From positions 4,545-68,544 of the forward strand of contig JAVYLW010000003.1 of assembly GCA_038740375.1 (NCBI GenBank): a stretch of 64,000 nt of DNA. Direction: 5' to 3'. Source of the stretch: Candidatus Pacearchaeota archaeon. GTDB lineage: Archaea > Nanobdellota > Nanobdellia > Pacearchaeales > GW2011-AR1. Shown piece after piece: positions 13,180 to 32,551 of the stretch. The notes beneath the pieces are model-generated. The model was given only the letters and a program-made list of their open reading frames with translations. It ran no database searches and was not told the origin of the DNA. Positions within the stretch are counted from its first letter, which is position 1. Every line of letters begins with the position of its first letter. The translations under genes were made by a program, and so were the position numbers.

Positions 13180-13494
13180 CTTTTCACCTTTTTTATAAAA
13201 TTAAGAAGAGATTATTATATTAAAAGTTATGTATAATAAATATGAAATAGATAAAAATGTATTGTTTAGAAAATTATTTTAAAAGAATTTTTTGTTCGTT
13301 TATACTTTTTAGAAAGTCTATTTGCCATATTCTAAAAAAAAGTTAAAATCAAAATAATTTTAAAGTTAGTGTTTTTTAGCTTAAATTTTTTATGTAATTT
13401 ACATCCTTTTTTAGAAATCATATCTATTACCCTTTTTTATTTTTGATACAATAAGTATTTTAAACCTAATATACTTCTTTAATTATATAAAAAA

Positions 13495-13884
13495 ATGGTA
13501 GAACAAAATATAAACGAACAATCTAGCCTAAACAATTTATTGACAGAATTAAGTATAAGGATAAGTGAATTAGAAGAAAGACAAAGATTGTTAAAGGACA
13601 GAATACTTCTTATAGGTAAAAATATAATTACAACAAGGGAAGAATTAGATAAACAAAATTTTGATATAAAAAAGAATATTAAGGATATTGAGTTTGAAAT
13701 AAAAGGAATAAAGCAATTAAATGAGAGAATAATTAGTGAGATTGGAAATTTTGCTAGAAGAAGTGAAATTCAAATATTACAAAGACAATTTGAAATATTT
13801 CAACCTCTAAAATTTGCAAGAATAGAAGATGTTAAAAAAATAGTTAGGGAAGAATTTGAAAATTTAAATAAATCAAATAAATAA
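13495..13884 (+). CDS. Coiled-coil protein (129 aa), divergent from the ATPase gene
   Basis: ATG ORF with heptad-like Leu/Ile/Glu/Lys composition throughout. No TM segment and no known motif. Confidence 0.55.
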   Translation: MVEQNINEQSSLNNLLTELSIRISELEERQRLLKDRILLIGKNIITTREELDKQNFDIKKNIKDIEFEIKGIKQLNERIISEIGNFARRSEIQILQRQFEIFQPLKFARIEDVKKIVREEFENLNKSNK

Positions 13885-13892
13885 TATATAAA

Positions 13893-14711
13893 ATGGCTAT
13901 TTTGGAAAGGGTTATTCAATTAAAAAAAGGAGGAATGTCTGATTCTCAAATAATTGATATTTTACGTCAAGAAGGAGTCTCTCCTAAAGAGATCAATGAT
14001 GCTTTAAATCAATCTAAAATTAAGTCAACTATAACACAAAATTTAGAATCTTCTCAAACTGAATTTTCAAATATGAAACCAAGTATAATGCTTGAGAAAA
14101 GAGAGAAAGTAAATAACGAAGAACCTTCTGAAAATGAAGAGGAATATTTAGAATATCAAGAGCCTGCTTATGAAAATATTCAAAAACAAGAACCTGTTTA
14201 TTATGAGGATCAGAATTATCAAAATTATCCATACTATAATCCAGATTCAACATATGAATATTATCCAGAATATCAGGCTCCAAAAGAACAATTAGCAATT
14301 GATATAGAGACTATTAATGATATTGTAGAGCAAATCATTGAAGAAAAGAATTCTGAATTAAACAAACAGGTTTCTGAACTTAAAAGATTTAAAGATGAAA
14401 CTAAAATTGATTTAGATAGGATAAATGAACGTCTTTTGAAATTAGAAAATACTTTTAATGATTTGCAAATTGCTATATTAAAGAAAATAGGAGAATATGG
14501 AGAAAACATTCAGGAAATTTCTAATGAAATGCGTGCAACTCAAGATTCTTTTTCTAAAATATTAAATCCTCTGACTGATAATATAAGAGAATTACAAAAA
14601 ATAGTAGGGATGCAAAATTCAAAAAAAGAGACAGATGATTCTGAAAAAAAAGAAGAAGATAAAAAAAGAATTGGAAAACAAAAACCGAGTTTTGAAGAAT
14701 ATCTTAGATAA
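13893..14711 (+). CDS. Coiled-coil protein (272 aa) with small N-terminal helical domain and acidic Tyr/Glu/Pro-rich linker
   Basis: ATG ORF 8 nt after the previous gene. The N-terminus is MAILERVIQLKKGGMSDSQIIDILRQEGVSPKEINDAL. The middle is low complexity (YQEPAYENIQKQEPVYYEDQNYQNYPYYNPD) and the C-terminus is coiled coil. Confidence 0.55.
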   Translation: MAILERVIQLKKGGMSDSQIIDILRQEGVSPKEINDALNQSKIKSTITQNLESSQTEFSNMKPSIMLEKREKVNNEEPSENEEEYLEYQEPAYENIQKQEPVYYEDQNYQNYPYYNPDSTYEYYPEYQAPKEQLAIDIETINDIVEQIIEEKNSELNKQVSELKRFKDETKIDLDRINERLLKLENTFNDLQIAILKKIGEYGENIQEISNEMRATQDSFSKILNPLTDNIRELQKIVGMQNSKKETDDSEKKEEDKKRIGKQKPSFEEYLR

Positions 14712-17543: not shown

Positions 17544-17801
17544 ATATAAAAATAATTTTTTGTTCTAAAAATTTTTTTAACTTTTAATCTTTTTTATCAA
17601 TTTAATATCAAATAAAAATATTAGATTTCAAGAGTTAATAAGAGCAAAGTTACATTATTAGTCTAAACTCTATTAGTATAATTTTATAATACTCATTAAA
17701 TGTATAGATAATATTCTTATTTGTATAATCTTTTTTAATTTATTTTTTATAAAAAACAAATAATTTATATATCTTAAAATATATATGCATATATAAAAAA
17801 A

Positions 17802-17806
17802 GGTGA
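17802..17806 (+). promoter_or_regulatory. Shine-Dalgarno-like GGTGA, 8 nt upstream of ATG 17815
   Basis: aaaaaGGTGAaacttgaaATG. The same GGTGA core recurs before several genes in the window. Confidence 0.4.
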
Positions 17807-17814
17807 AACTTGAA

Positions 17815-18357
17815 ATGATAAAAAAGAAAAAGAATACTAAGAGCGTTAAGAGAAAAAAAAATATTTCCAATTTATTTGTTAATAAAAATTTAAAAAAAGA
17901 GTCAAGTAAATACTATTTGTTTGGAATAAAAGTCATAACACTTTTAGTTTTATTATTATCTTTATACTGTTTGATTTTATTTAGCTTATACATAATTAGT
18001 TTTTTTGTAAAAGGTTCTTTAAGAGATTATATGCTTACTGGAATTTTTGATAAAGAGTATTTTATTTCAAGGTATGGTATTATAGCTGCTGAAAATTTTA
18101 TTTTATTAATAGGAGCATTTGTTTCATTATTTTCTTTCATTTTTTGTTTTTGGTTTTCTTTGGCATTTTGGAAAAGAAAAAATTGGGCTAGGATAACAAT
18201 TGGGCTAATTAGTTTAATTATATTTGTAATTTCATTAATGGATTTTATATTTGTAAAATTTAGAAGTGTAATGCAAATAATAACAATTCTTATTACAGGA
18301 TTTATTTTTTTATATTTATTTTTTAATAAAAAAGTTGTGGAATATTATACTAAATAA
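17815..18357 (+). CDS. Hypothetical polytopic membrane protein
   Basis: The track ORF starts at GTG 17803, which lies inside the GGTGA site, so ATG 17815 is preferred. Lys-rich N-terminus followed by about 4 TM segments. Confidence 0.5.
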   Translation: MIKKKKNTKSVKRKKNISNLFVNKNLKKESSKYYLFGIKVITLLVLLLSLYCLILFSLYIISFFVKGSLRDYMLTGIFDKEYFISRYGIIAAENFILLIGAFVSLFSFIFCFWFSLAFWKRKNWARITIGLISLIIFVISLMDFIFVKFRSVMQIITILITGFIFLYLFFNKKVVEYYTK

Positions 18358-18693
18358 TTTTTACTTTAATTTAAAATTAATTAATTTATTTTATGAGAAT
18401 AACAGAATTTTCTGTTAAAAATTTATTTTTAAACAAAAATTTTAAGATTAATATTCGTTCTAGTTTTTAGAAAGTATTTTAATTTAAATTATTTATTTGT
18501 ATTAAAAAACATTACTCTCATTTATTATTGATTTTGTAACAAAATTTATTTAATGGAATTTTATTTTTTATTAATTTTTTTAATATTTTCTCTATCCTAA
18601 GATAACAATTAATAAAACATTTATATATTACAAATTGTAATGTTATATATGAATACTTTTTAGTATAATCAAAACATAATTAAATAATTTAAA

Positions 18694-20640
18694 ATGAAAA
18701 AAAAGTTAAAAAGAGGTATTAACAGAATAAGTAAAAAAAATAATATTCTAAAAAGTTTAATTATAACTGTATTTTTAGTAATTATTTTATTTATTATTTT
18801 TGTTTTTTTATTTAATATTTTTTATAAAAAAGAAAAATATCATTTAAAAGAAGAACTTCCAAGCTTAGGAATTTTTGGAGGCGGATCAGGAAGTATTGAA
18901 GATCCTTATATAATATCTAATTGTCAAGAACTTCAAGATATAAATAAAGATCCTTTTTCTAATTACATTTTAGTTAATAATATTGATTGTTCTGATACTA
19001 TTAACTGGAATAATGGTGCTGGATTTCAATCAATTGGAGAGTATTATTGGGATAATGTTGCTAAAAAATATGTGGATAGAAAATTTAATGGAACTCTTGA
19101 TGGCAATGGTTTTAATATAACAAATCTATATGGAGAAGGTATTTTTTCTTATCTAAAAGGTAAAATAAAAAATGTTCATTTAGTAAATATCAATGTTTCT
19201 GGAGGAGGCTCTTTAGTTAATGTAAATGAAGGGGTTATTGAGAATTGTAGCTCTATTGGAAATGTTTCTCAAGGAGGAAATTACGAATTTGGAACTATAT
19301 ATGCAGATTGTTTAGAATTAAATAATCTAATTCGTATTTCTTTTAGAGAAGGTACTGGAGGGCTTGTTGGTTTTAATATAGGAAATATATCTAATTCTTA
19401 TTTTTATGGAGTAGTTAAAGGGTTTATTCAGGTAGGAGGATTAGTAGGAGTTAATAATGGAAATATTATTAATTCTTATTCTAATGTAGATATTTATGGA
19501 GATTATAATGCTGGCGGTTTAGCTGGACTTAGTGTTGCACGTAACAAATGGAAAGATGGAATTTATAATTCTTTTTCAGTTGGAAACATTTATGGAAGTT
19601 TTTCTTCAGGAGGATTAGTAGGAGTTAGTAATTCAATAGTTATTAATAATTCTTTTTTTAGCGGAAATGTTTGGGGAGATTTTAATTCTGGAGGAATAGT
19701 AGGGTATAGAGGAGATAGTTGTTATTCTTTTATTTATAATTCTTTTTATTATAACGAGACAGGAGATGTAAATTGGTGTTGGAGTAATTCAAGTGGAAGT
19801 TTTAATGACGGATGCACAATTGTTAATGATAAAAATTATTTTTATAATTTTGAAAATGAACCTATGATTTATTGGAATTTTGTTGAAGACTGGAGTAAAG
19901 ATAATATTCATGAAGGATATCCTAAATTAAAATGGGAAAATTCTTTTTTAGTTTATTGTGGGGATAATATATGTAATAATATGGAGAATTGTTTAACATG
20001 TTCACAAGATTGCGGTTCTTGTAGAAAAGAGGAGGATAATAAGATAAGTAATGAATTTTCTTCAGTAGGTGATAGTAAAAAAGAATATTGGATTAAATCT
20101 ATTTATATAAATGATAGTCAATTAAAAGAAGGTTTTGAGAATGAATTATTAACAAGACATAGAATTGTTTTTAAAATATCTAACAAAACTTATTTTATAG
20201 GAGTTACAGATATATTCTTTAATTATGCTAAAATAAATCTTTCTTTGAATAGAATGTTGACTTATTATTTTTTTATAGGTGATGATAAAAAATTTGATAT
20301 TGATAATAATCAATTATATGTAAAAATGAATTATTTAGATAAGTCAAAAGTTAAAATTTTTGTTAAATATACTCCTAAATCTAATAATCAAGATTCAGAT
20401 AAAATAAACGAGAGTGAGACAATTAAAAATGAGTCTAAACAACAATCTGTTGAAGTTCCTTATGAATCAGAAGAAGAAACTCCTTGGATTTTATATATTG
20501 CTGTTTTAGTTCTAATAATTCTTGTTATAGGTATAATTTTTGAAGTCTATTTATTTTTAAATGCAAAAAGAAAAATAAAGGAGTTTAGAAAAAGGGCGAT
20601 ATCTATTTATAAATATAAAAATAAGAATAAGAATATATAA
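18694..20640 (+). CDS. GLUG-repeat (beta-helix type) surface protein with Cys-knot module and C-terminal anchor
   Basis: 648 aa with an N-terminal TM. GGGSGSIEDPYIISNCQELQDIN...NIDCSDT..W...GFQSIG is followed by repeated GGLVG.NNG.I.NSY (GLUG) units, then YCGDNICNNMENCLTCSQDCGSC and a C-terminal TM. Paralog of 43177-44871. Confidence 0.8.
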   Translation: MKKKLKRGINRISKKNNILKSLIITVFLVIILFIIFVFLFNIFYKKEKYHLKEELPSLGIFGGGSGSIEDPYIISNCQELQDINKDPFSNYILVNNIDCSDTINWNNGAGFQSIGEYYWDNVAKKYVDRKFNGTLDGNGFNITNLYGEGIFSYLKGKIKNVHLVNINVSGGGSLVNVNEGVIENCSSIGNVSQGGNYEFGTIYADCLELNNLIRISFREGTGGLVGFNIGNISNSYFYGVVKGFIQVGGLVGVNNGNIINSYSNVDIYGDYNAGGLAGLSVARNKWKDGIYNSFSVGNIYGSFSSGGLVGVSNSIVINNSFFSGNVWGDFNSGGIVGYRGDSCYSFIYNSFYYNETGDVNWCWSNSSGSFNDGCTIVNDKNYFYNFENEPMIYWNFVEDWSKDNIHEGYPKLKWENSFLVYCGDNICNNMENCLTCSQDCGSCRKEEDNKISNEFSSVGDSKKEYWIKSIYINDSQLKEGFENELLTRHRIVFKISNKTYFIGVTDIFFNYAKINLSLNRMLTYYFFIGDDKKFDIDNNQLYVKMNYLDKSKVKIFVKYTPKSNNQDSDKINESETIKNESKQQSVEVPYESEEETPWILYIAVLVLIILVIGIIFEVYLFLNAKRKIKEFRKRAISIYKYKNKNKNI

Positions 20641-20853
20641 GACAAAAATAATTTATTTTTTCTATTTTAAAAAAGTAAGATTTATTTTATTACATAATTT
20701 ACTTTTATTAAAATTTTATGTTTAGTTTTATGAATTTATTAGTATTTTTTAGTCAAACTGAATAAGGTTATATTTATAGGGTATATTTATAAATATAAAA
20801 TTATATAAAGAAAGTTTTATTAATTCTTTTTTCTATTTTTGATTATTAAAAAA

Positions 20854-20858
20854 GGTGA
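20854..20858 (+). promoter_or_regulatory. Shine-Dalgarno-like GGTGA upstream of the platform-protein gene
   Basis: aaaGGTGAatgATGgatg. ATG codons at 20859 and 20862; the second has the better spacing. Confidence 0.4.
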
Positions 20859-23039
20859 ATGATGGATGTAGATGAAATTTTGAAAAAATATTCAAAAAAA
20901 ATTGAAAGTCAAATCAATAGAAGTAATTTTAATTTAAACTCTACAGATTCTTCGGATGTTTCTATTTCTAGAGATTATGAGCAATTCAAAAAAGATATGA
21001 TTCCTGCATTGTCTAGGTATGAGAGATTAGCTAGAGGTCTTGGAAGTATAATTAGAATTAAGCCATCTGTGAAAGACGAGGTAAGAATTCAAAAAGAATT
21101 AAATACAGCTCATCTTGATATAACTCCTGGAGAAGTTATTGGACTTGCATTTATGAGTTTTTTTATTTTTTTATTGACAGGATTTTTAATTTCTGTTTCA
21201 ATATGGTTTTTTACTGAACAAATTCCATTTTTATTCTTTTTTTTAATGTTGATAATTTCTTTATTTTTATATTATTATTTTTCTACTATGCCTTCTAGAC
21301 TTGCTATAAAGTGGAAACTAAAGGCTAGCAGCCAAATGGTTCCTGCAATTTTATATACAGTAATTTACATGAAACATACAAGTAATTTAGAAAGAGCTAT
21401 AAACTTTGTAAGCAAACATATTGATCCGCCATTATCACTAGATTTAAAAAAGGTTTTATGGGATGTTGAAACTGGAAAATTTTCTAATGTGAAGGATAGC
21501 TTAGACTCTTATTTAGATTTTTGGAGAGAAACAAATATGGAGTTTGTTGAAAGTTTTCATTTAATTGAATCTAGTTTATATGAACCTAATGAAACAAGAA
21601 GAGTTGAGATATTAGAAAGAGCATTAAGAGTTATTTTAGACGGAGTTTATGAAAAAATGCTTAAATATACTCATACAATAAAATCTCCTCTTACAAATGT
21701 TTATATGCTTGGAATTGTTTTGCCTACACTTGCTCTTGCTTTACTACCTCTTGCTTCAACATTATTACAAGGTATGATACAGGCAGTTCATGTGTTTGTT
21801 TTGTTTAATCTTGTAATACCTTTTTTAGTATTTTATCTTACAACTCAGGTAACTTTAAAAAGACCTGGAGGATATGGAGAAACAAGTTTTTTGGAAAAAA
21901 ATCCTTTATATTATCAATATCAATCCAAAAAACCTTATTATATTGCAGCACTAATATGCATTCCTATGTTTATAATAGGAATTTTGCCTTTGATTTTTGG
22001 TTATACAAATATACCTGAATTTATAGGAATTCCTAGAGATTTTTCTTTAGTAGATATAGGTCTTGGAATTTTAGGAAATGGAAATTTTTTTGGATTTGAA
22101 GAAACCGAGACAGGATATTTTGGACCTTTTGGTTTTGGTTCAATTATTTTATCTTTATTTATTCCTTTTTCAATAGCTATGTTTTTTGCTATTTCCTTTA
22201 ATTTAAGAACAAAAAATTTAATTAAGGAAAGAGATTCTACTAAAGCTTTAGAAGAAGAATTTAATTCTAGTTTATTTACTTTAGGAAATAGAATTGGTGA
22301 TGGAATACCTGCTGAGATTGCTTTTGCAAAAGTTGCCGATTCTGTTAGGGGACAAAAGACTGAAAATTTCTTTAAAATTGTTAATTCTAACATTCAATCA
22401 ATGGGAATGAGTTTGGAAGAAGCTATATTTAATTCAAAAAGAGGAGCTATTATATATTTTCCAAGCAGCCTTATAGCTACAAGTATGAGAATATTAATTG
22501 AAAGTTCTAAAAAAGGATTGCAAGTTGCTGCACAAAGTTTAATGAGTATTTCAGAATATGTTAGAAATATTCATAAAATTAATGATAGATTAAAAGATCT
22601 TTTAGCTGATGTAGTCTCTGATATGAAAAGTAATATGACTTTTTTAGCTCCGCTACTTGCTGGAATAGTAATAGGTCTTGCATCTATGATAACTCTTATA
22701 ATCAGTCAATTAAAAAGTTTTTTAGGCACAGTTATTGATATAGAAAGTAGTGGAATTGGAGCAAATATACTTAATATCATAACTCTTTTTAGATTAGAGT
22801 CTATTATTCCTCCTTATTATTTACAAATTGCTATAGGAATCTACATCATAGAAATAATTTTTATATTAACAATAACTTTAGTTATTATAGATTCTGGAGA
22901 AGATAAACTAAAACAAACTTATGATATATCAAAAAACTTAATTGCAGGTGGTTTTTTATATTTATTTACTTCATTACTTTCAATAATTTTATTGTCAATA
23001 CTTGCAGGAATTGCTCTTGCTGGTATCAGTGCAGGATAG
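20859..23039 (+). CDS. FlaJ/TadC/PilC-like polytopic membrane platform protein (assignment by architecture and context)
   Basis: 726 aa. Soluble helical regions alternate with clusters of TM helices, as in T2SS-F-type platform proteins. The gene lies between the secretion ATPase and the pilin-like gene array. Confidence 0.6.
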   Translation: MMDVDEILKKYSKKIESQINRSNFNLNSTDSSDVSISRDYEQFKKDMIPALSRYERLARGLGSIIRIKPSVKDEVRIQKELNTAHLDITPGEVIGLAFMSFFIFLLTGFLISVSIWFFTEQIPFLFFFLMLIISLFLYYYFSTMPSRLAIKWKLKASSQMVPAILYTVIYMKHTSNLERAINFVSKHIDPPLSLDLKKVLWDVETGKFSNVKDSLDSYLDFWRETNMEFVESFHLIESSLYEPNETRRVEILERALRVILDGVYEKMLKYTHTIKSPLTNVYMLGIVLPTLALALLPLASTLLQGMIQAVHVFVLFNLVIPFLVFYLTTQVTLKRPGGYGETSFLEKNPLYYQYQSKKPYYIAALICIPMFIIGILPLIFGYTNIPEFIGIPRDFSLVDIGLGILGNGNFFGFEETETGYFGPFGFGSIILSLFIPFSIAMFFAISFNLRTKNLIKERDSTKALEEEFNSSLFTLGNRIGDGIPAEIAFAKVADSVRGQKTENFFKIVNSNIQSMGMSLEEAIFNSKRGAIIYFPSSLIATSMRILIESSKKGLQVAAQSLMSISEYVRNIHKINDRLKDLLADVVSDMKSNMTFLAPLLAGIVIGLASMITLIISQLKSFLGTVIDIESSGIGANILNIITLFRLESIIPPYYLQIAIGIYIIEIIFILTITLVIIDSGEDKLKQTYDISKNLIAGGFLYLFTSLLSIILLSILAGIALAGISAG

Positions 23040-23270
23040 ATTTTTAAAGTTATATTTAAAAAATTTATTATTTTTTTTATTTTAATATTTATTTAAAAAA
23101 TTTTTTTAATATAACAAATTAAGAAAATAGAAAGTTTGAAAAATTGCTAATTTATTTTAATGTTTAATTATTAAATTCAGAACGAAATTTGTATAGAAAT
23201 ATAAAATTGAAACTAGTATAATTAAAATATTAAGGATAATATATAAATAATATAGAATAATTAATTAAAT

Positions 23271-23450
23271 ATGCAATTAAGATTATTTAAAAAAAGAAGT
23301 GAGAAAAAAGGAATTGAATTAGATATGCTTGGTTGGTTTATTATAGCACTAATTATTTTAATTATTTTAATTATTTTAATTGCTATATGGAAGGAAAAAA
23401 TGTTTAATGGAATAAAATTTATTATCAATTTATTTAGGTTTAGAAGTTAA
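23271..23450 (+). CDS. Mini pilin-like protein (59 aa) with class III signal peptide; not in the ORF track
   Basis: Encodes MQLRLFKKRSEKKG/IELDMLGWFIIALIILIILIILIAIW... : a basic stretch, Gly, a short polar stretch with Glu, then a hydrophobic helix. The layout is Flp/archaeal-pilin-like. It is 1 aa below the track cutoff. Confidence 0.55.
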   Translation: MQLRLFKKRSEKKGIELDMLGWFIIALIILIILIILIAIWKEKMFNGIKFIINLFRFRS

Positions 23451-23464
23451 ATTTAATATTTAAA

Positions 23465-24841
23465 ATGGATAAAAATAAAAAGAGGATGAAAAAATATGGA
23501 AAAGTTAGTCTTCCTATAAATTATTTAGTATTATTGATAATTCTCGTTATAGTTATATTTTTAGTAGTATTTTTTGTATTTAGATTAGGATGGATTCAAG
23601 AGTGGAAAATATTTTTGCCAGATTGGATTGTTGGTAATCAATCTTATTATGGTGAAAGAGGATGTCCTTCTGGAAGTTTTGAGGTAGCTTATTTAGATTC
23701 AAGAAATTATATTATTTTAAATGGAAGCAGAACAAATATATATATTTTAGGAAACAAGATTTATTTAGATGATGGAAGTTCTTTTAAAAAAGATAATCAA
23801 ATAGGATTTATTCATGGAAAAGAAAAGGGATATTTGATTGTTATAACTCTTGCAGGATTTAATCCTGATGATAGATACTCTTATAATACAAATTCTCTTC
23901 TTCCAAATTCTAAAGATGAGAGAAGATTATTATTTTATAATCCTTTTTTAGAAGGTTCTTCTATTTGTTTAAGTAGTGAAATGATGAATTATATAAACTC
24001 TATTATGAGTTGCAAATTAACTTGCGAACTTGTTGAAGGTGTCTGTAGATCTAATTGTCTTGCTGGAGAGGTTTATAATGGACAAATAGATTGTCCGAAT
24101 GGACAATATTGTTGTGTAAAAGAAACAGCTGAATTTTTATCTTCTGAAAATATAACACTTTTATCAAAGTCTTATTTTGAAAATGTTTTTTTTAGTAAAA
24201 CTCAAGTGCAAAAAGATATATTAAATAATAATATTTTTAAAGGAATTCCTGGAACTAGATATGCTCTTGCAATGTTTGTTAAGAGAAATGTTCCAATATG
24301 TTATAGTTTTGATAGTAATACTAAATATATAGAAAGTGGTTTTAGAAATTCTGATGATAATGAAGAAACTTGTTTTATTGCTCCAAAGCCTTTCACTTAT
24401 TCAAATGAAAAATTTATAGAGTTTGTTGCTTGGAATAAAGATTTAAATCAAAAAGTAATAAAAAGATGGAAATTGATTCCTGTAGATGTAACAGAAATTG
24501 GTTTTGATCCTGGAAAAATAATTATAGATAGTTCTGATTTTCGTGAAAAAATGAAAAATGCAGATGAAGGAGATAGATTTTATGTTTTTTTAGAAGAAAG
24601 AAATGATTGGGAAAAAAGTACTAATTTAGGATTGAGTAGTGAACTCAGATACACATTTGTATATAAAATTGAAAAAAAAGGAGATAGGATATGTATTTAT
24701 GCATGGGATGAAAAAATTGTTGGAGAAAGTTCTGGATGGCATTTATTAGATTGTGCTGGGTTAGGTAGAGATTGTATATTAATATCTGATATTGAAAATA
24801 GTTTTAAGGAAACTTTAGATAATAAATGTTCTTGGAATTAA
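23465..24841 (+). CDS. Pilin-like protein (458 aa) with Cys-rich module
   Basis: N-terminus MKKYG/KVSLPINYLVLLIILVIVIFLVVFFVF. Module CKLTCELVEGVCRSNCLAGEVYNGQIDCPNGQYCCV. Confidence 0.7.
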   Translation: MDKNKKRMKKYGKVSLPINYLVLLIILVIVIFLVVFFVFRLGWIQEWKIFLPDWIVGNQSYYGERGCPSGSFEVAYLDSRNYIILNGSRTNIYILGNKIYLDDGSSFKKDNQIGFIHGKEKGYLIVITLAGFNPDDRYSYNTNSLLPNSKDERRLLFYNPFLEGSSICLSSEMMNYINSIMSCKLTCELVEGVCRSNCLAGEVYNGQIDCPNGQYCCVKETAEFLSSENITLLSKSYFENVFFSKTQVQKDILNNNIFKGIPGTRYALAMFVKRNVPICYSFDSNTKYIESGFRNSDDNEETCFIAPKPFTYSNEKFIEFVAWNKDLNQKVIKRWKLIPVDVTEIGFDPGKIIIDSSDFREKMKNADEGDRFYVFLEERNDWEKSTNLGLSSELRYTFVYKIEKKGDRICIYAWDEKIVGESSGWHLLDCAGLGRDCILISDIENSFKETLDNKCSWN

Positions 24842-24857
24842 TATAAAAATAACAAAA

Positions 24858-25484
24858 ATGAGAAAAAAAATTAAAAAACAAGATTTTACAAAAAGAAATA
24901 AAAAATTTGAAAATAACAAAAGAGCAGAGACTGAGCCATTAGGTTCAAATGTTGTCAACTTTGTAATTGGATTAATTGCATTAATAATTTTAATTGGAGT
25001 AGGTGTTATGGTTTATAAATTAATTTCTGTTAATTCAAGTGATGTTAAGACTGCAGAGGTGGTTGTTGAAAAAATAAGAAATATAATGGAAGAAGCTAAA
25101 AGAAATCCTGGGCAGGATTTTTTTTATGATGTTGAAGGTCCTGGAAATAAATGGTGGTGGATAATTGCTTGGCCTTATCAAAATAGAATAGAAAAACCTA
25201 TTAAATGTAATTTATACAGAAAATCTTGGTGTATATGTATTTGTGAAAGACCTTCTAACTTAAGAGTAGCTTGGAATTTGATTACTAGTAATTTAATGAT
25301 AAGAAGCATAACTACTTCATTACAAAAATGTAATAATAATGGAAGATGTTTAGAAGTAGAAAATCCTGTCAAAACAATTAATCAAGGCTATAATATGCCT
25401 ATTCCAATAGAATCTCCTCCAATTCAAATAAGTATAAAATATATTGATTCAGATAAAGGTTATGAAATAACTTTTGTAAAATAA
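24858..25484 (+). CDS. Pilin-like protein (208 aa)
   Basis: NNKRA/ETEPLGSNVVNFVIGLIALIILIGVGVMVY is class III-like. The globular part is Trp- and Cys-containing. Confidence 0.65.
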   Translation: MRKKIKKQDFTKRNKKFENNKRAETEPLGSNVVNFVIGLIALIILIGVGVMVYKLISVNSSDVKTAEVVVEKIRNIMEEAKRNPGQDFFYDVEGPGNKWWWIIAWPYQNRIEKPIKCNLYRKSWCICICERPSNLRVAWNLITSNLMIRSITTSLQKCNNNGRCLEVENPVKTINQGYNMPIPIESPPIQISIKYIDSDKGYEITFVK

Positions 25485-25511
25485 CTTTGTAAAATTGTTT
25501 ATATAAATAAA

Positions 25512-25631
25512 ATGAATAAAAATAATAAAGCTTTAATTGAAGAATTAGTTAAATATTTAATTTGGATATTTTTAGCTATTATATTAATACTTGCAGTTTA
25601 TTTCATAGGAAAAAATTTAAAATTGTTTTAA
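25512..25631 (+). CDS. Mini pilin-like peptide (39 aa); not in the ORF track
   Basis: Encodes MNKNNKA/LIEELVKYLIWIFLAIILILAVYFIGKNLKLF. It sits between two pilin-like genes with 27-nt and 7-nt gaps. Confidence 0.4.
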   Translation: MNKNNKALIEELVKYLIWIFLAIILILAVYFIGKNLKLF

Positions 25632-25638
25632 TAAAAAA

Positions 25639-26616
25639 ATGAAAAATAAAATAAATAAAAAAAGAGGTTCTATATTGCCAGATACTTCTGTAAAAATAAT
25701 AATTCTTGTAATAAGTTTTGTCATTTTATTATTAGCTATAGGTTATTTTGTTTATACTGATATTATAAAAAATTCAGGCTGTAAGGATTCTATTATTATT
25801 AGAAACAGCATTAATCTTGGTTTTTTGCCTGTAGATAATATTGTTCCTTTGAACTGTGTAACAAATAAAATTTGTTTAACTCAATCTGGAGAAAACTGCA
25901 AAAGATTTGGGAAACCTGATAAGAAACAATCTATTTTTAATAAAAAACTTGATAAAGATCCTGAAAAAGCAAAAAAACAAGTTATCGAAAAAATTGTTGA
26001 AGAAATGTTAACATGCCAAACTTTATTTACTAATGATAAAGGAGAACCCTATTATTTTATGCCTGCAAAGTGGTTTGATTTTAATAATAAATATTGTCTA
26101 ATTTGTTCTAGAATTGTTTTAGATGATGAAGCAAGAAAAAATATTAATGGAATTACTTATGGAGAATTATATCAAAAATTAGCAGAGAAAAAAATTCCTA
26201 ATGGAAGAAGTTATCTTGATTTTTTATATTCTGGATGGCAAGATTGGAGAAGAGCTCAAGACTTATACAGAGTTTTTAAAGATAAATATCCTGATAAAAT
26301 GCCTGATAAATTTGAGGATTGGAAAATTGATCTTTCTAAGGAAGATGGTATTGTGATTGTTGTTCAAATGACAACAAAAGGTTATTTAAACCAAATTTTA
26401 GCAAGTGGAGCTGTTTTACTTGGTAGTGCTTTGGTTTTGACATATATTGGAGCTCCAGTAGGTATAGCTTTAATAGGAGTAGGTACTAGCGCAGGAGTTA
26501 CTTTTTGGTATACTGCTCCTGATGAAAGATATCTATATTCACCTCCTGCAATATATGGAGGGGATATAGATACACTAAAAAGTTTAGAGTGCGATTCTTT
26601 TGAATTTTCTCCTTAA
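25639..26616 (+). CDS. Pilin-like protein (325 aa) with an additional C-terminal hydrophobic hairpin
   Basis: NKKRG/SILPDTSVKIIILVISFVILLLAIGYF at the N-terminus. ILASGAVLLGSALVLTYIGAPVGIALIGVGTSAGVTFWY near the C-terminus. Confidence 0.7.
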   Translation: MKNKINKKRGSILPDTSVKIIILVISFVILLLAIGYFVYTDIIKNSGCKDSIIIRNSINLGFLPVDNIVPLNCVTNKICLTQSGENCKRFGKPDKKQSIFNKKLDKDPEKAKKQVIEKIVEEMLTCQTLFTNDKGEPYYFMPAKWFDFNNKYCLICSRIVLDDEARKNINGITYGELYQKLAEKKIPNGRSYLDFLYSGWQDWRRAQDLYRVFKDKYPDKMPDKFEDWKIDLSKEDGIVIVVQMTTKGYLNQILASGAVLLGSALVLTYIGAPVGIALIGVGTSAGVTFWYTAPDERYLYSPPAIYGGDIDTLKSLECDSFEFSP

Positions 26617-26828
26617 TTATTTTTCATTATAATTTTTTAATTTTTATAATAAAAAATGTATTCATTTTTAATATTATTTTGTTAATTTCATTTGTATTAT
26701 TTAAACTTAAAATAAAATAGATTTTTTTTTAAATTGTTTAACAATTTTCGATTTTAAAAATTTTAAATTTTTTTCTAAATTAAATTTTAGAGAGATAAAT
26801 TTTTAATGTTAAATAACTTTGTCTATTA

Positions 26829-27293
26829 ATGAAAATAGAAAAGAGAAAAATGAATAAAATTGCTAGCGAAGTTTTATTGGGAGCGATCATCTTTTTGGTC
26901 GTTATTATTTTATTTGGTTCAATCTTAATTCTTTTTATATACAGGTTTGGTAAAACAGCTTCTATGTTTGAACAACTTTATTCAAAACAAATTGCTTTAA
27001 TGATAGACTATTCATTAACAGGCACTAATTTTAGTTTAGATATTTCAAAATTATATGAAGTTGCAAGAGAGAATAATTATAATGGTGAGTTAATTAAAAT
27101 AGATAATAATAACCATAATGTTTTTGTTAAATTAACTTCTGGAAAAGGTTATAGATATAAATATTTTAGCGATGCTGATGTTTTATGGAATATTAAACCT
27201 GAAGAAAAGAGATTGTATGTTACTATTTTGTCTAAAAATAAAGAAAATGTTATAAGAAATATTGAGCTATCTCAATATTTTGATGATATATGA
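26829..27293 (+). CDS. Pilin-like protein (154 aa)
   Basis: MNKIA/SEVLLGAIIFLVVIILFGSILILFIY. Confidence 0.65.
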   Translation: MKIEKRKMNKIASEVLLGAIIFLVVIILFGSILILFIYRFGKTASMFEQLYSKQIALMIDYSLTGTNFSLDISKLYEVARENNYNGELIKIDNNNHNVFVKLTSGKGYRYKYFSDADVLWNIKPEEKRLYVTILSKNKENVIRNIELSQYFDDI

Positions 27294-27327
27294 AAAAAAT
27301 TTTAGTTAATGATTAAGATTTTGGTTT

Positions 27328-27843
27328 ATGATAAAGATAATAAAAATTAATAAAATGAAGGCTAAAAAAATTTATAAGAATGCAAGTAGCAAAATACTTT
27401 CGTTTTGGTTAATCATCATTTTGTTTTTAATAGCTTTTGTTATTTCTATAGGAGTATTAGCTTTTTATTCTTCTGATATAGATGTTAGACAATTAGAGGC
27501 TAATTCAATGAATGATAAAATTATAATGTCTCTTTCTACAGGAGGTTATATAAATAATGAAGTTTTTAATAAAGACTCTAAAATTACTCAAATTGTTGAA
27601 ATATCTGATTTTGTCATAAGGGACAGCAAAGATTTTTATTTTAATGTTACAATATATAATTCTAATTATAGAGAATTAAGAAGTTTTGTTCTTGGAAATC
27701 CTGATTTTGAATTTCAGTGCAGGTTAAAAGGAAAGAAATATGCAAAATGTAGGGATAGTGAATTTATTTTGTTAAATAGAACAAATCCAGAAGAAAAATT
27801 CATAATTAAAGTTCTTACAGGATCAAATCAAAAAGGAGTTTAA
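27328..27843 (+). CDS. Pilin-like protein (171 aa)
   Basis: KIYKNA/SSKILSFWLIIILFLIAFVISIGVLAF. Confidence 0.65.
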   Translation: MIKIIKINKMKAKKIYKNASSKILSFWLIIILFLIAFVISIGVLAFYSSDIDVRQLEANSMNDKIIMSLSTGGYINNEVFNKDSKITQIVEISDFVIRDSKDFYFNVTIYNSNYRELRSFVLGNPDFEFQCRLKGKKYAKCRDSEFILLNRTNPEEKFIIKVLTGSNQKGV

Positions 27844-27848
27844 TAATT

Positions 27849-28415
27849 ATGAAAATTAAGAAAATCAAATTTAAAAAAGCAGTCATAGGAGATACTGTAA
27901 CATGGGTTGCAGCAATTATAATAATTGCAATCTTACTTTTTATTTATTTGTTAATAACTTTTTTTATGAGTGAGAAAAAATTTATTTTAAATAATTTTGA
28001 CATTAATTTAAAAGGAGAATATTATGGAGATGACTTTGCATTACTTGAAAGTATGTATTCTTTTTTAAATACACCTGTGGTATATGAAAATAAAAAGATG
28101 AGAATTCTTGATGCTTTGTTAAGTAAGAAAATTTCTGTCGATGATTACGAACTTTATAAAATAGTTAATGATACTATGAGTTTTTATTGTTCAGATTATT
28201 TTATATGGGTTCCTGATGTTCAATTTTTGCCGAAAGGTTTAGAGCCAAATTATTATGAAAAAGGAAGAATTTATTTTTTTAGAAGTAAAGATATTAATGA
28301 AAAAAATCCCTGGAATTATGGAGTTAATTATAGGCCTAATGAAGATGTTGAAGAAGTTTTTATAAGATACTCTACATTAAAAAGTTGCGTAGGTAGTAAA
28401 GATTTAACAAAATGA
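27849..28415 (+). CDS. Pilin-like protein (188 aa)
   Basis: KFKKA/VIGDTVTWVAAIIIIAILLFIYLLITFF. Starts 5 nt after the previous gene. Confidence 0.65.
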   Translation: MKIKKIKFKKAVIGDTVTWVAAIIIIAILLFIYLLITFFMSEKKFILNNFDINLKGEYYGDDFALLESMYSFLNTPVVYENKKMRILDALLSKKISVDDYELYKIVNDTMSFYCSDYFIWVPDVQFLPKGLEPNYYEKGRIYFFRSKDINEKNPWNYGVNYRPNEDVEEVFIRYSTLKSCVGSKDLTK

Positions 28416-28897
28416 TATTATTTAAAAAATATAATTATATCTGTAATAAAAAAGGTTTAATGTCAATTGCTACAGTATTATTAGTCTTATTAACTTTAGT
28501 TTTAATTGGAGTTGCTTTAGGAAATTTTGTTCTAAATGAAAGAAAACAAGCTTATTATTTTGAACTTCCTGTTCAAATTTATTATATGAATAATGAAGTT
28601 TTACGTTTAGATTTTTATTTGCAAGAACTTTTTGATAAGGCGCTAAAAGAAATGAAGCCTGACTTTAGTCCTCAGGATTTTATTAATAAATATATTGAAA
28701 ATATGGAAAACTATAAACCTCGTGAGATTAATATTTATAAAAGTCAAATATTAAGAGAACTAAACTTTGATAATATTTTTGTTGATAATGATAAAATAAC
28801 ATTTAAAATTAATATTTTGATTTCTAAAGAAAGCGAAGATAAAAATTTTAAAGTAAGTTACATTTATAGGAGGGAATTTGTAAAGAAACTTTCATAA
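28412..28897 (+). CDS. Pilin-like protein (161 aa)
   Basis: CNKKG/LMSIATVLLVLLTLVLIGVALGNF. ATGA start/stop overlap with the upstream gene. Confidence 0.65.
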   Translation: MILFKKYNYICNKKGLMSIATVLLVLLTLVLIGVALGNFVLNERKQAYYFELPVQIYYMNNEVLRLDFYLQELFDKALKEMKPDFSPQDFINKYIENMENYKPREINIYKSQILRELNFDNIFVDNDKITFKINILISKESEDKNFKVSYIYRREFVKKLS

Positions 28898-28936
28898 AAA
28901 GATTTTTAAATACTAAAGTTAATATTATTTTATTAA

Positions 28937-28943
28937 AAGAGGT
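28937..28943 (+). promoter_or_regulatory. Shine-Dalgarno-like AAGAGGT, 5 nt upstream of ATG 28949
   Basis: ttaaAAGAGGTaaaaaATG. Confidence 0.4.
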
Positions 28944-28948
28944 AAAAA

Positions 28949-29557
28949 ATGAATAAGCGCGGTGCTGAAATGACTATTGGAACGATTATTGTTATTATAC
29001 TAGCTTTAGTTGTTCTTGTTGTTATTATCTATGGATTTACAGTTGGTTGGAGTAATTTATGGCAGAAGATAACAGGATTTTCACCAAAATCAAATGTTCA
29101 TACTCATGTTCAAGCATGTCAAATTGCATGCACTTCTGAATCTAAATATGATTATTGCAAACCAAGACAAGTAATTTTTGAAGATAAAGGAAAACCTGTT
29201 CAATTTAGATCTTGCGAGGATTTGCAAATTCAGAGAGGATCTTCTATAGGTCTTGAGCCTTGTTTATCTATATCTTGTGCTGGAACTGAAGAAGCTGGTA
29301 GTTGTGAAAATATTGGTGGAAAATGGCAATTAGATCCTTGTTTAACTTCGTATCAATTAGATATAACTTCTAGAGTTACAAATAATTTTAATAAAGGTAA
29401 TAATAAGTTCTGTTGTCAAACTACATGCGCTCTTCTTAATGGAATATGGAGAGCTAGTCCTTGTGATGGAAGAACTGAAAATGATAGAACTGACGATATT
29501 ACTGATAAAGTGAGTGATAATCCTAATAACTATAGATTTTGCTGTGTTGCAAAATAA
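28949..29557 (+). CDS. Pilin-like protein (202 aa) with textbook class III signal peptide and Cys-rich head
   Basis: MNKRG/AEMTIGTIIVIILALVVLVVIIYGF. The remainder carries many Cys, including two aromatic-Cys-Cys motifs (KFCCQTTC, RFCCVAK). Confidence 0.8.
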   Translation: MNKRGAEMTIGTIIVIILALVVLVVIIYGFTVGWSNLWQKITGFSPKSNVHTHVQACQIACTSESKYDYCKPRQVIFEDKGKPVQFRSCEDLQIQRGSSIGLEPCLSISCAGTEEAGSCENIGGKWQLDPCLTSYQLDITSRVTNNFNKGNNKFCCQTTCALLNGIWRASPCDGRTENDRTDDITDKVSDNPNNYRFCCVAK

Positions 29558-29767
29558 TTTATTATTTAAATCATAGTAGTTAAATTGTTAATAAAATTTT
29601 TTGAAATAAATATGATTTTTTTAAAGATGTTATTAAATAATTTTTTAATAAGTTGATAACAATTTATATAAAAAAGTATTTTTATTCTATTAATATAAGT
29701 AAAATCAAAAAATTTTATAAATCAATCTTAACTTAATTTATAAATAAAATATTTAAATATTCGTTAT

Positions 29768-29887
29768 ATGGATTACGGATTTCCTGAAAAGCGGAAAAAT
29801 AAGAATGATAAAAGAGCAAAAAATCGCTATAATAGATATAAGCGTGGTGGACACTCTAGAATTAAGAAAATGAATAAAATCTGTTAG
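29768..29887 (+). CDS. Candidate small, very basic protein (39 aa); not in the ORF track
   Basis: Encodes MDYGFPEKRKNKNDKRAKNRYNRYKRGGHSRIKKMNKIC. G+C is locally higher than in the flanking intergenic DNA. No family recognised. Confidence 0.3.
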   Translation: MDYGFPEKRKNKNDKRAKNRYNRYKRGGHSRIKKMNKIC

Positions 29888-29994
29888 ATTTGTATATTTT
29901 TGATTATTTTTTCTTAAAATATTTTTTTAACTAAATTAGCTAAAATTATTAGTTAGATTAATAAATGATTATTTCTTATTTTTTTTGTTAAAAA

Positions 29995-29999
29995 GGTGA
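29995..29999 (+). promoter_or_regulatory. Shine-Dalgarno-like GGTGA upstream of the prepilin peptidase gene
   Basis: aaaaGGTGAttaatagcgtATG (10-nt spacer). Confidence 0.35.
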
Positions 30000-30009
30000 T
30001 TAATAGCGT

Positions 30010-30858
30010 ATGTTATTAAATTATGAAAATCTTTTTTTGATTATACTTGCTATTGTTTGGTTAGTTGGCGCTGTATTACAAGATTTAAAAAGACGTGAGG
30101 TAGATAATTTATGGAATTTTTCTTTAGTTATTTTTGCATTAGGATATAGATTCATTGTAATGTCTTATTCTGGAAATTACTGGTTTTTTATTAATGGAAT
30201 AATTGGAGTTGTAGTATTTTTTGTGTTAGGTAATTTATTTTATTATTCTAGGCTATTTGCCGGAGGAGATGCTAAACTTTTAATAGCATTAGGAGGAATA
30301 CTTCCTCTTAGTTATGATTGGATAATTAATGTTAAAATTTTTGGAATATATATATTATCTTTTTTATTTTTAGGTTCTTTATATGTATTAATCTGGGCTA
30401 TTTTTTTGATGTTTATTAATTGGAAAAAATTTAAAAAAGAATTTTTGAAGCAATGGAGAATTTATCATAATTATTTTTTTGTATTTTTTGTCATAATTCT
30501 TCTCTTTATATTAATTGTTTTATTGCTAGGTAAAAATATATTTGTTATTTTGGGAATAATTTTATCTTTATTTCCAGTTTTGTTTATATTTGCTAAATCT
30601 ATCGAAGAATCTTGCATGATAAAAGCATTAGATCCAAAAAAAATAACAGAAGGAGAATGGCTTTATAAAAATTTAAAAGTAGGTAAAAAGAAAATAATAG
30701 CAAATTGGGAGGGTATTTCTGAAGATGAATTAAGATTAATTAGAAATAAATATAAAAAGAAAGTATTAATTAAACAAGGAATTCCCTTTACTCCTAGTTT
30801 TTTGATAGGATTTTTGATTTTGTTATTTATTTTATGGAAATATAAACTTTTGTTTTAA
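30010..30858 (+). CDS. Prepilin/preflagellin peptidase (A24 family, PibD/FlaK/EppA-like)
   Basis: 282 aa polytopic protein. An Asp-containing first loop (VLQDLKRREVDN) and FAGGDAKLLIALGG give the two aspartyl motifs of A24 peptidases. The gene is adjacent to the pilin-like array. Confidence 0.8.
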   Translation: MLLNYENLFLIILAIVWLVGAVLQDLKRREVDNLWNFSLVIFALGYRFIVMSYSGNYWFFINGIIGVVVFFVLGNLFYYSRLFAGGDAKLLIALGGILPLSYDWIINVKIFGIYILSFLFLGSLYVLIWAIFLMFINWKKFKKEFLKQWRIYHNYFFVFFVIILLFILIVLLLGKNIFVILGIILSLFPVLFIFAKSIEESCMIKALDPKKITEGEWLYKNLKVGKKKIIANWEGISEDELRLIRNKYKKKVLIKQGIPFTPSFLIGFLILLFILWKYKLLF

Positions 30859-30939
30859 TTTTTAAAATTTAAATTGCTGATTAATTTTTATTGAAAATAT
30901 ATAACAAAGTTTAAATATTAAAAAATATTTAATTATTAT

Positions 30940-31233
30940 ATGAAAAAAAGAGAAAAATTAAGAGAAAATAAAAAAAAATTTTGGGACGATATTGATTCTA
31001 AACTTAAATGGGGATTTAAAGGTTTACAATTTTCTTTCGTTTTATTATTAATTATAATTTTTATTTTACTTGCAGTTGTTCTTGTTTCAAGCAAAGATAT
31101 AGCAGAAGTTAATAAGCTTATATTAAAATTACCTGAAGGTTATGATTATCTTGGAATATTAGCAGAAATAATTTTATTTATAGCTATTCCTTTTTTAATT
31201 GGAATCAAAATAGGAAGTAAGATTAAAAAATAA
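30940..31233 (+). CDS. Small membrane protein (97 aa)
   Basis: ATG ORF with two hydrophobic segments after a Lys-rich N-terminus. Confidence 0.45.
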   Translation: MKKREKLRENKKKFWDDIDSKLKWGFKGLQFSFVLLLIIIFILLAVVLVSSKDIAEVNKLILKLPEGYDYLGILAEIILFIAIPFLIGIKIGSKIKK

Positions 31234-31531
31234 TTATAAAAACTTTATTAATTAAATTTAATTATTTATGATATATTATTAATTTTTAATTTTTGTTATG
31301 TTATATGATCTAATTTGTAAGTATAAGAAATGAGATATATTATTAATTAAATCTTTAGCAAGAAATTCGAACATTTTTAAAGGGAAGATGAATTGCATTA
31401 TGATTAAAGAGCAATGAAATATATAGAGAATCAAGAGATGCATCATAATCCCCGGCTAAATCAATAAGGACATCTGTCCATTTTAGTGGATGGAGGATAT
31501 CAAGTCTAATATTTTCTAATGAATTATTAAA

Positions 31532-32179
31532 TTAAGGTATTCTAAAACTTATTTTTGGTAATCTATCATCGTTTTCACTTTTGTCTTTTATTTTTTTTGA
31601 TATTCGATGTTTTTGCTCTAATTTATTTTTAAGGAATTTTAAATCTTTTTCTTCTGCTTTTTGTTTTTTTAAAGGAATATCTCTATATAAAGGAATTACA
31701 TTTATAAAACAATGACCTTGAAAGCTAGAAGTTTCTATTTTTATATCATCAGGTTTTAGTTTCTTTTTTATTTTGTTTGCTATTTTTTGAGCTAAACTCA
31801 TAGCTGTTTTTGGTATTTTTTCAGTTGGAAGATGCTCTTTTGGAAGAATTATAGAATGACCTTTTGATAAAGGATTTATTTCCAAAACTGCTATTGATTT
31901 ATTATTCTCATTTAATTTATATGATGGAATAATTCCTTTTATTATTGAACAAAATATGCATTCTTTTTCATTTTCGTTTTGTTTTTCTTGTTCTAATAAT
32001 CCATCTTTTTCAGAAACACTAATATTATTTTTTTTTAAGAATTCTTCTAATTCTTGTTCGTTTAGATTTTCTATGTATTTTTTTATTTGTTCTTTATTTG
32101 GATTATCTAATTTATCAACATATGAGATTAATTGTTGTTTTATATCATCAATTTGTTCTTTTGTAAATGACATACACAA
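31532..32179 (-). CDS. HIT-fold protein with degenerate histidine triad and N-terminal acidic/coiled extension
   Basis: CIFCSIIKGIIPSYKL...AVLEINPLSKGHSIILPKEH is the typical HIT N-terminal half. The expected HxHxHxx is QGHCFINVIP, with only one His. Confidence 0.6.
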   Translation of the reverse strand: MCMSFTKEQIDDIKQQLISYVDKLDNPNKEQIKKYIENLNEQELEEFLKKNNISVSEKDGLLEQEKQNENEKECIFCSIIKGIIPSYKLNENNKSIAVLEINPLSKGHSIILPKEHLPTEKIPKTAMSLAQKIANKIKKKLKPDDIKIETSSFQGHCFINVIPLYRDIPLKKQKAEEKDLKFLKNKLEQKHRISKKIKDKSENDDRLPKISFRIP

Positions 32180-32278
32180 ATTAAAATATTTTTAAAGTTA
32201 TAAACTTATTGGAAACTTGATTTTTTTATTATGTTGTTAATATTATTTTAAACAAATCATTAATAAAATTTTTTATTT

Positions 32279-32551
32279 TTATCCTACAGCTCTTCTAAAG
32301 TCTATTATTTCTGCAGAATTTACCTCTTTTATTTTTCTTAATTTTTCTAATAATTCATCTGAATCTAAAGTTTCTTCTCGAGTGAATAATATATTTAAAG
32401 CTGTTAATCCAAAAGCAATAGGTTCTTTTTCTGCTCTAAAACTATTACAATTTTCTTTTTCTGTAATTTCTTTTGCTTTTTTTTCTATTTTTTCTAAATC
32501 TGAATTTGGAGATTTAGGCATTATTTTAATTTTAAAGATTGCAAGCCCCAT
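32279..32551 (-). CDS. ef1b: Translation elongation factor aEF-1 beta
   Basis: 90 aa. The pattern KIKIMPKSPNSDLEKI...EKEPIAFGLTALNILF...AEIIDFRR is characteristic of archaeal EF-1beta. Confidence 0.8.
   Translation of the reverse strand: MGLAIFKIKIMPKSPNSDLEKIEKKAKEITEKENCNSFRAEKEPIAFGLTALNILFTREETLDSDELLEKLRKIKEVNSAEIIDFRRAVG

Follow-up and report, generated by a model that had tools for sequence, protein, structure and literature searches.

What do ten consecutive genes in a small archaeal genome encode, when every pilin-like gene in the locus that has a source name is labelled 'hypothetical protein'? The question is raised by a 64,000-nucleotide stretch of a Candidatus Pacearchaeota archaeon (contig JAVYLW010000003.1, positions 4,545 to 68,544), which we call the window and which has a GC content of ~24%. 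Both Pacearchaeota and Woesearchaeota belong to the DPANN archaea and are abundant and uncultured; their genomes are small, and they are thought to live attached to other cells. An earlier note, made from the letters of this DNA, had read the genes between 23271 and 29557, here p1 to p10, as an array of prepilin-type genes. Ten open reading frames (ORFs) were found exactly at these coordinates, and we are fairly confident that they form the pilin part of a conserved, lineage-specific locus for a type IV filament (TFF), resembling the type IV pilus (T4P), in Pacearchaeota and Woesearchaeota. Literature searches turned up general remarks on TFF systems in DPANN, but no account of this particular array.

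Leader and helix of the ten N-termini

The earlier note had proposed a shared layout, and all ten proteins have it: a basic leader and a Gly or Ala come first, then a short polar or acidic stretch and a ~20-residue hydrophobic helix. Each has exactly one N-terminal hydrophobic segment of ~19 or more residues, and in seven of the ten a strict [KR][GA] pair stands directly before the helix (KG/IELD, RA/ETEP, KA/LIEE, RG/SILP, KA/VIGD, KG/LMSI and RG/AEMT; a slash inside a motif marks the predicted cleavage site). Among 19 other window ORFs with an N-terminal transmembrane (TM) helix, the same motif rule flagged a single one, at 18694. A second such ORF, missed by the rule, was recognized by eye downstream of the peptidase gene (30940–31233, plus strand); it encodes 97 residues with FKG/LQFSF before a hydrophobic helix, plus a second TM segment. 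This ORF was found in one other locus only, and so lies outside the conserved set.

For comparison we used 83 related loci, drawn from genomes of Pacearchaeota, Woesearchaeota and Nanoarchaeota; family membership across loci was assigned with hidden Markov models, and families were counted over 84 sequences (the loci plus the window). All ten families share an N-terminal consensus, M-N-K-K-[G/A], ahead of polar or acidic residues and the helix; this holds even for the three families in which the window copy departs from it. In the related loci, [KR][GA] occurs within 12 residues before the helix in 85–98% of the members of nine families and in 60% of p4 members. The corresponding value for 239 control ORFs of the same loci was 13%, many of the positives being unassigned genes inside the cluster. 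Gly or Ala occupies position -1 in 70–90% of members of most families (about 50% for p4), and this conservation is not compositional because both residues use GC-rich codons in a genome of 24% GC. In profile–profile alignments, p1, p4, p6 and p10 were in register both at KKG or KKA and along the helix, an agreement to be read with caution because transmembrane composition inflates such scores.

The families differ in detail around this common plan. The consensus is MNKKG/E in p2 and p6, KNKKG/E in p5, MNKKG/GEK in p7, KNKKA/QIG in p8 and NKKA/D in p9; p3 members have Lys or Arg in ~90% at -3 and -2, and Gly or Ala in ~90% at -1. In most families, members commonly have an acidic residue somewhere between +1 and +5. 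The +1 residue varies across families, and Gln is confined to p8 and a fraction of p10; processing sites known from archaea are of the types KG/Q, RA/L, KA/I and similar (PMC4371748).

Cys-rich C-terminal domains occur among the pilin-like proteins, which suggests that these domains are extracytoplasmic. The p2 protein, whose family varies in length and presence among loci, contains 15 Cys and a weak beta-defensin-like Cys motif; p3 members have a median of 7 Cys, and p5 has 8. The p6 family is marked by a conserved YEQxYAKQIALxID motif. A match of p6 to ComGF (E 0.0034; 17.6 bits against a cutoff of 80) was seen in one of 30 members and was rejected as chance.

Might the shared N-termini be a chance resemblance among unrelated membrane-anchored or Sec-secreted proteins, their Lys-rich starts a product of the 24% GC genome? 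Lys-rich N-termini are common in so AT-rich a genome, and the absence of matches to pilin families fits this explanation as well. It is at odds with the retention of Gly or Ala at -1 despite the cost in GC-rich codons, with the enrichment of the motif (85–98% against at most 13% in controls), with N-terminal modules that are in register between families, and with a conserved gene order beside an ATPase, a platform and an A24 peptidase. We regard chance resemblance as extremely improbable. The N-termini thus support, at the level of sequence, the assignment of the ten genes as the prepilin-like (class III signal) set of a TFF locus.

Predicted assembly genes and conserved gene order

The ATPase encoded in the window scored 49 bits with Pfam T2SSE (PF00437; cutoff 24.9), and its best matches among PDB sequences were A. 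fulgidus GspE (2oap, 3e-31), CpaF (1e-24) and FlaI (2e-16). In related loci L002 and L003 the orthologous gene immediately precedes that of the platform; in the window the ATPase module is inverted relative to the platform. Divergently transcribed from the ATPase gene is a pair of genes for coiled-coil proteins with no Pfam match, 53% and 44% identical to the equivalent pair in locus L001. A similar-sized pair, matched by size and position only, adjoins the ATPase gene in L002 and L003, and these proteins may be accessory or regulatory subunits.

The 726-residue protein encoded just before p1 is identical to NCBI QXW97_01865, from a Candidatus Pacearchaeota (DPANN) metagenome-assembled genome. 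Its homologues number more than 3700, and none of them carries a Pfam domain; one JGI record names it 'TadB'. In an AlphaFold2 model with nine TM helices and a predicted local distance difference test (pLDDT) score of 78.6, the soluble domain matched the cytoplasmic domains of OutF, EpsF and PilC with probabilities of 0.87–0.99, target TM-scores of 0.60–0.69 and root-mean-square deviations of 2.9–4.0 Å. Judged from this model, the protein is likely a GspF/PilC-like platform.

The earlier note had placed an A24 peptidase just downstream of the array, and this was borne out: the encoded protein matched PF01478 at 32.7 bits (cutoff 26.5), contains the catalytic Asp pair (D25 in LQDLKRRE, and D87 in the GGD motif of AGGDAKL) and has 5 predicted TM segments. 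The A24 profile match covers residues 13–130. A C-terminal extension of ~90 residues (~residues 190–282) is conserved and is also present in L001.

The order ATPase, platform, a p10-like gene of ~115 residues (in some loci), p1, p2 (variable), p3 to p9, p10 (in some loci followed by another p10), a small basic ORF and the A24 peptidase is conserved in dozens of species-level genomes. The families were found in 68 (p1), 63 (p3), 51 (p4), 56 (p5), 53 (p6), 52 (p7), 48 (p8) and 46 (p9) loci; the two small ORFs p1 and p4, on whose conservation the reading of the earlier note depended, are thus conserved genes. That note had called both small ORFs unannotated. Of the two, only the 39-residue p4 ORF is absent from public protein records; the 59-residue p1 ORF is annotated there, as hypothetical protein QXW97_01870 / MEM0465431.1.

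The peptidase was matched in 35 loci (phmmer), and it and the small basic ORF end the array wherever both were detected. This small ORF (MDYGxPEKRKxKxDKRAKxRYNRYKRGG...) specifies 36–46 residues, lies directly upstream of the peptidase gene in 39 loci (e.g., L001 19177–19317) and does not appear in public protein sets. It is probably protein-coding, since variability is highest at third codon positions; a search of 20000–32500 against Rfam gave no match, so that it is not a known RNA.

Gaps of 5–30 nucleotides had been taken as a sign of operons. Most gaps are indeed short (5–34 nucleotides) and the ATGA overlap at 28412–28415 is real, but 212 nucleotides precede p6 (26829) and 51 precede p10 (28949), and the array therefore probably spans at least two transcription units. 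A sigma-70 promoter and terminator scan returned 88 sites against 84 expected, and is uninformative for an AT-rich archaeon.

By analogy with T4P systems, the proteins would be made with a very short basic leader (M-N-K-K-G/A), behind which come an acidic or polar residue and a ~20-residue hydrophobic helix; they would insert into the membrane with the N-terminus inside. The A24 aspartic peptidase would cut after the Gly or Ala at the cytoplasmic face, and the ATPase, acting via the 9-TM platform, would extract the helices and stack them into a helical fibre. The multi-copy p10 family would most likely supply the main fibre subunit, p5 to p9 would be conserved, low-abundance minor pilins that prime or cap assembly, and p2 and p3 would be variable Cys-rich surface or adhesin modules. 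The helix-only, pilin-like subunits p1 and p4 would either co-assemble in the core or base of the fibre or serve as membrane assembly factors. The biological role is likely attachment to surfaces or host cells by small-genome, presumably host-dependent archaea.

The same gene set could instead build a short pseudopilus, a T2SS/Com-like piston for secretion, DNA uptake or breach of the host envelope (T2SS, type II secretion system). The pilin-like proteins would then be its stalk and tip, and the mini-proteins and p5 would be analogous to GspL and GspM. The operon logic is that of gsp and comG (ATPase, platform, ~115-residue pilin, minor pilins, bitopic membrane proteins, peptidase), minor-pilin-like genes outnumber the major-pilin candidates by a high ratio, and the second membrane segment of p5 fits as well. 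So does the biology in general terms: DPANN archaea have reduced genomes and rely on uptake from their hosts. Yet no secretin, DNA-receptor or ComEA/ComEC-type gene was identified among the cluster genes listed and scanned. In addition, archaeal TFF loci with many minor pilins make true pili, Epd being an example (PMC4858521), and pili have been reported, in general terms only, on ultra-small groundwater cells (PMC9938205). We consider a pseudopilus distinctly unlikely.

Several observations weigh against the assignment of the array as the pilin part of a TFF locus. The window copies of p2, p6 and p7 retain Gly or Ala at -1 and have Tyr, Ile and Asn, not Lys or Arg, at -2 (YG/KV, IA/SE, NA/SS), the leader is absent in ~40% of p4 members, and 32 of 57 p5 members have a second, Gly/Ala-rich hydrophobic segment ~60 residues from the C-terminus. 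This segment is atypical for a pilin; it may mark a base or anchor component. No pilin model in Pfam or NCBIfam matched any of the ten proteins at E ≤ 0.1 save the ComGF match of p6; within the p1, p10 and p6 families, isolated sub-threshold matches were seen, in one or two members each, to TrbC/VirB2 pilin, Flp1_like, ComGF and ComGG. The p1, p6 and p10 profiles found no solved pilin among PDB sequences. For the platform, the fold matches had whole-chain E-values above 1, Pfam T2SSF matched 1 of 16 homologues (E 0.012) and not the window protein, and the profile found nothing significant among PDB sequences. Leader cleavage, export and filament formation are themselves predictions only.

The features of the window are collected in the table. 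Three further plus-strand genes fill 14889–20640, between the ATPase module and the platform, and encode proteins of 884 residues (Cys-rich, with repeats), 184 residues (a membrane protein) and 648 residues, the last with a GLUG motif, KRG near its N-terminus and a C-terminal TM segment. They are not found at that position in L002 or L003, and may be inserted surface or adhesin genes. Beyond the peptidase lie what we take, from their translations, to be archaeal housekeeping genes: an aEF-1beta-like gene (32279–32551), whose orthologue in related loci carries PF00736, an OB-fold RPA-like gene (32680) and a RadA-like recombinase gene (33833).

Table. Genes of the putative type IV filament locus in the window; a slash in a motif marks the predicted cleavage site.
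Feature	Coordinates	Strand	Length and remarks
Secretion/assembly ATPase, PilB/CpaF/FlaI-type	10894–13179	-	761 residues
Two cytoplasmic coiled-coil proteins, probable accessory components	13495–13884, 13893–14711	+	129 and 272 residues
Polytopic platform protein, PilC/GspF/TadC-like	20859–23039	+	726 residues; 9 predicted TM segments
p1, mini pilin-like	23271–23450	+	59 residues; predicted cleavage KKG/IELD; predicted mature form 45 residues
p2, large variable Cys-rich pilin-like, adhesin candidate	23465–24841	+	458 residues; KKYG/KV
p3, pilin-like	24858–25484	+	208 residues; NKRA/ETEP
p4, mini membrane protein, pilin-like N-terminus	25512–25631	+	39 residues; NNKA/LIEEL; predicted mature form 32 residues
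p5, pilin-like N-terminus plus C-terminal hydrophobic segment	25639–26616	+	325 residues; KKRG/SILP
p6, minor-pilin candidate	26829–27293	+	154 residues; likely start M8, MNKIA/SEV
p7, minor-pilin candidate	27328–27843	+	171 residues; YKNA/SSK
p8, minor-pilin candidate	27849–28415	+	188 residues; FKKA/VIGD
p9, minor-pilin candidate	28412–28897	+	161 residues; NKKG/LMSI; ATGA overlap with p8
p10, best major-pilin candidate	28949–29557	+	202 residues; MNKRG/AEMTIG
Small, very basic conserved ORF, directly upstream of peptidase	29768–29887	+	39 residues
Class III signal (prepilin) peptidase, A24 family	30010–30858	+	282 residues

Candidates for the main fibre subunit

If the locus builds a fibre, which protein would be its main subunit? 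The leader of p10 is the shortest and most canonical of the set. Its family comprises 132 homologues of 111–253 residues that share the N-terminal ~110 residues, with a nearly invariant N-terminal helix and 6 conserved Cys. A locus has 1–3 copies, and one of them immediately follows the platform gene in about 25 of the related loci; in Com and T2SS operons, this position is usually occupied by the major pilin. In the window this slot is empty: the 231-nucleotide gap 23040–23270 holds neither an ORF nor a tblastn remnant of a ~115-residue p10-like gene. An AlphaFold2 model of p10 (pLDDT 88.4) has a 36-residue N-terminal helix (7–42) and a compact Cys-rich head.

Arguing from these analogies, we tentatively favour p10 as the main fibre subunit, with a confidence that falls a little short of even. 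Only the number of copies, the position of the gene and the quality of the leader enter into this choice; an ungapped test of N-terminal conservation did not clearly separate the families or single out a major pilin. A Foldseek search of the PDB with the p10 model found no match, which weighs against the pilin reading of the array as a whole. The lack of a match may mean that the modelled head has a small Cys-rich fold not described before, or that the long helix upset the fold search.

The earlier note had suggested that the mini-proteins p1 and p4 could form the filament, in which case the larger proteins would be minor or tip subunits. Both have the dimensions of mini-pilins (~40–60 residues, one helix, no globular domain), with family median lengths of 55 (p1) and 40 (p4) residues. 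An exhaustive search of a 1.84-billion-protein library gave 35 cluster representatives of p1, all of 49–75 residues. The p1 leader fits K[KR][GA] in 96% of members, with Asp or Glu at +4 in 47% and at +5 in 28%; the consensus at the position that follows is Tyr, in only ~20%. Its one TM helix is only loosely conserved, the best-conserved part of the protein being a basic C-terminal IKNLFRFG tail. The Flp/Tad likeness suggested for the mini-proteins stands for size and helix-only build, and fails for sequence: none matched Flp or another pilin model, or a solved Tad/Flp pilin. Specifically, Flp_Fap matched 0 of 30 p1 members, one match to Flp1_like was seen at E 0.054, and the p1 profile found no solved Tad/Flp pilin among PDB sequences.

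There is archaeal precedent for a tiny major pilin in EpdE of Methanococcus maripaludis, ~6.4 kDa when mature (PMC4390842), and the Epd major pilin is described as lacking a globular domain, like that of Tad (bioRxiv 10.64898/2026.04.22.720090). This precedent keeps alive the rival idea that the mini-proteins, especially p1, are the major subunits of a helix-only, Flp/Tad- and EpdE-like fibre, and the larger proteins, p10 included, its minor or tip subunits. Several properties of p1 agree with it: presence in 68 of 84 sequences, always as a single copy; the strong leader; the acidic residue at about +4/+5, as in bacterial and Epd pilins; and a mature size that fits helix-only pilins such as EpdE. 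The closeness of the ATPase to CpaF, the Tad ATPase, agrees as well.

Against these stand the lack of a match to Flp_Fap or solved Tad pilins, the loose conservation of the p1 helix, and a tail that looks less like a fibre surface than like a motif for interaction or for the membrane surface. A 32-residue mature p4 would barely exceed a TM helix, p4 is leaderless in many lineages, with a leader in ~60% of members, and p10 is multi-copy and fills the slot after the platform gene. The division of labour drawn in the earlier note is thus not established. We hold a fibre with mini-proteins as major subunits to be unlikely; for p1 in particular as the major subunit, alone or co-polymerised, our estimate is only slightly less guarded, and p10 is retained as the leading candidate.

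The p4 family raises a problem of its own. In at least ten species-level lineages it is leaderless (loci L048, L051, L055, L056, L067, L070, L072, L074, L077 and L082); the ORFs are maximal, in-frame stops lying 0–11 codons upstream. These proteins have 33–34 residues and start M-x-L-[DE]-x-L-I-K, their Met aligning with the -1 Gly or Ala of leader-bearing orthologues, that is, within one residue of the predicted cleavage site. The natural leaderless N-termini thus mark the start of the functional part, and their occurrence in many lineages implies that p4 need not be a peptidase substrate. In the same lineages a third leaderless mini ORF, of 52–56 residues and with the motif 'MELTIxQLIKII', lies right after p1 (e.g., in L051 at 13259–13429, with p4 at 13935–14036), and in most loci of this subgroup p8 and p9 are shortened. 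The subgroup looks like a reduced variant of the system.

A bolder reading would combine these observations: a helix-only fibre, or fibre core, of mini subunits of 32–45 residues, for whose p4 and 'MELTIxQLIKII' components some lineages have dispensed with prepilin processing. We think this very unlikely, and we know of no precedent for naturally leaderless type IV pilin-like subunits. If such subunits were real, leader removal would not be intrinsically required for incorporation.

Place among known systems

With the platform alone having so many homologues, the locus is among the best-conserved surface machineries of these archaea. Its approximately twelve families can be turned into annotation rules based on the MNKK[G/A] leader and gene order, and they supply concrete candidates for studies of host attachment. 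The mini-proteins and their leaderless variants make a test case for the minimum size of a type IV filament subunit and for the need for a leader. The general picture is unchanged, type IV filament systems in DPANN being already expected.

The archaeal TFF plan consists of an ATPase, a platform, a class III signal peptidase, a major pilin, at least five minor pilins and adhesin-like proteins (PMC4858521), and system 1, Aap-like or 4A loci have already been reported in DPANN (bioRxiv 10.64898/2026.04.22.720090). The Epd locus of M. maripaludis (TFF system 1, or clade 1 of Makarova et al. 2016) is similar in having an ATPase, a platform, class III pilin-like proteins and many accessory genes (PMC4371748, PMC4858521), in its site types KG/Q and RA/Q, and in a tiny major pilin, EpdE, without a globular domain (PMC4371748, PMC4390842); system 1 is among those reported in some DPANN (bioRxiv 10.64898/2026.04.22.720090). 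Unlike Epd, the present locus has one platform gene, of 726 residues, instead of two, and a 282-residue peptidase with 5 predicted TM segments where Epd has a large, dedicated peptidase of the EppA type. A +1 Gln is not conserved across the families, no pilin sequence family was matched, and the operon itself contains two mini-proteins and a universal Cys-rich pilin family of ~115 residues.

Bacterial Tad/Flp systems (Flp, TadE/F, CpaF, TadB/C, TadV) share with the locus the CpaF-like ATPase (1e-24), helix-only subunits of ~45 residues when mature, an acidic residue near +4/+5 (in p1) and a dedicated A24 peptidase in the locus. They differ in the Flp_Fap family and the G/XXXXEY motif, neither of which was found here (Tyr is rare in p1), and in TadZ, RcpA and secretin, none of which was identified among the cluster genes scanned; the organism is an archaeon without an outer membrane, and the pilin-like genes here are far more numerous. 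The T2SS (gspE-F-G-H-I-J-K-L-M-O) and Gram-positive comG operons share the order ATPase, platform, pilin of ~115–145 residues, 4–5 minor pilins, small bitopic proteins and peptidase. They differ in that no homology is detectable beyond ATPase, platform and peptidase, and in the N-methylation-type G/F(M)xxxE motif, which is absent here.

Aap and Ups of Sulfolobales, and other archaeal adhesion pili, resemble the locus in a small PibD-type A24 peptidase, [KR]A/[LI] motifs and a presumed adhesion role (PMC4371748). Those systems have one or two pilins with Ig-like or beta-rich heads, whereas the present one has ten or more families, Cys-rich heads without a PDB fold match, and mini-proteins. An archaellum finds no counterpart, as no archaellin (FlaB) or FlaH/FlaF/FlaG family match was obtained among the scanned cluster genes. 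Together, these comparisons describe a lineage-specific variant within an already known type of system, with pilin families and a platform that lie beyond the reach of curated profiles. What distinguishes it is a single large platform gene, two or three mini-proteins within the operon, some of them leaderless, and a Cys-rich pilin family of ~115 residues.

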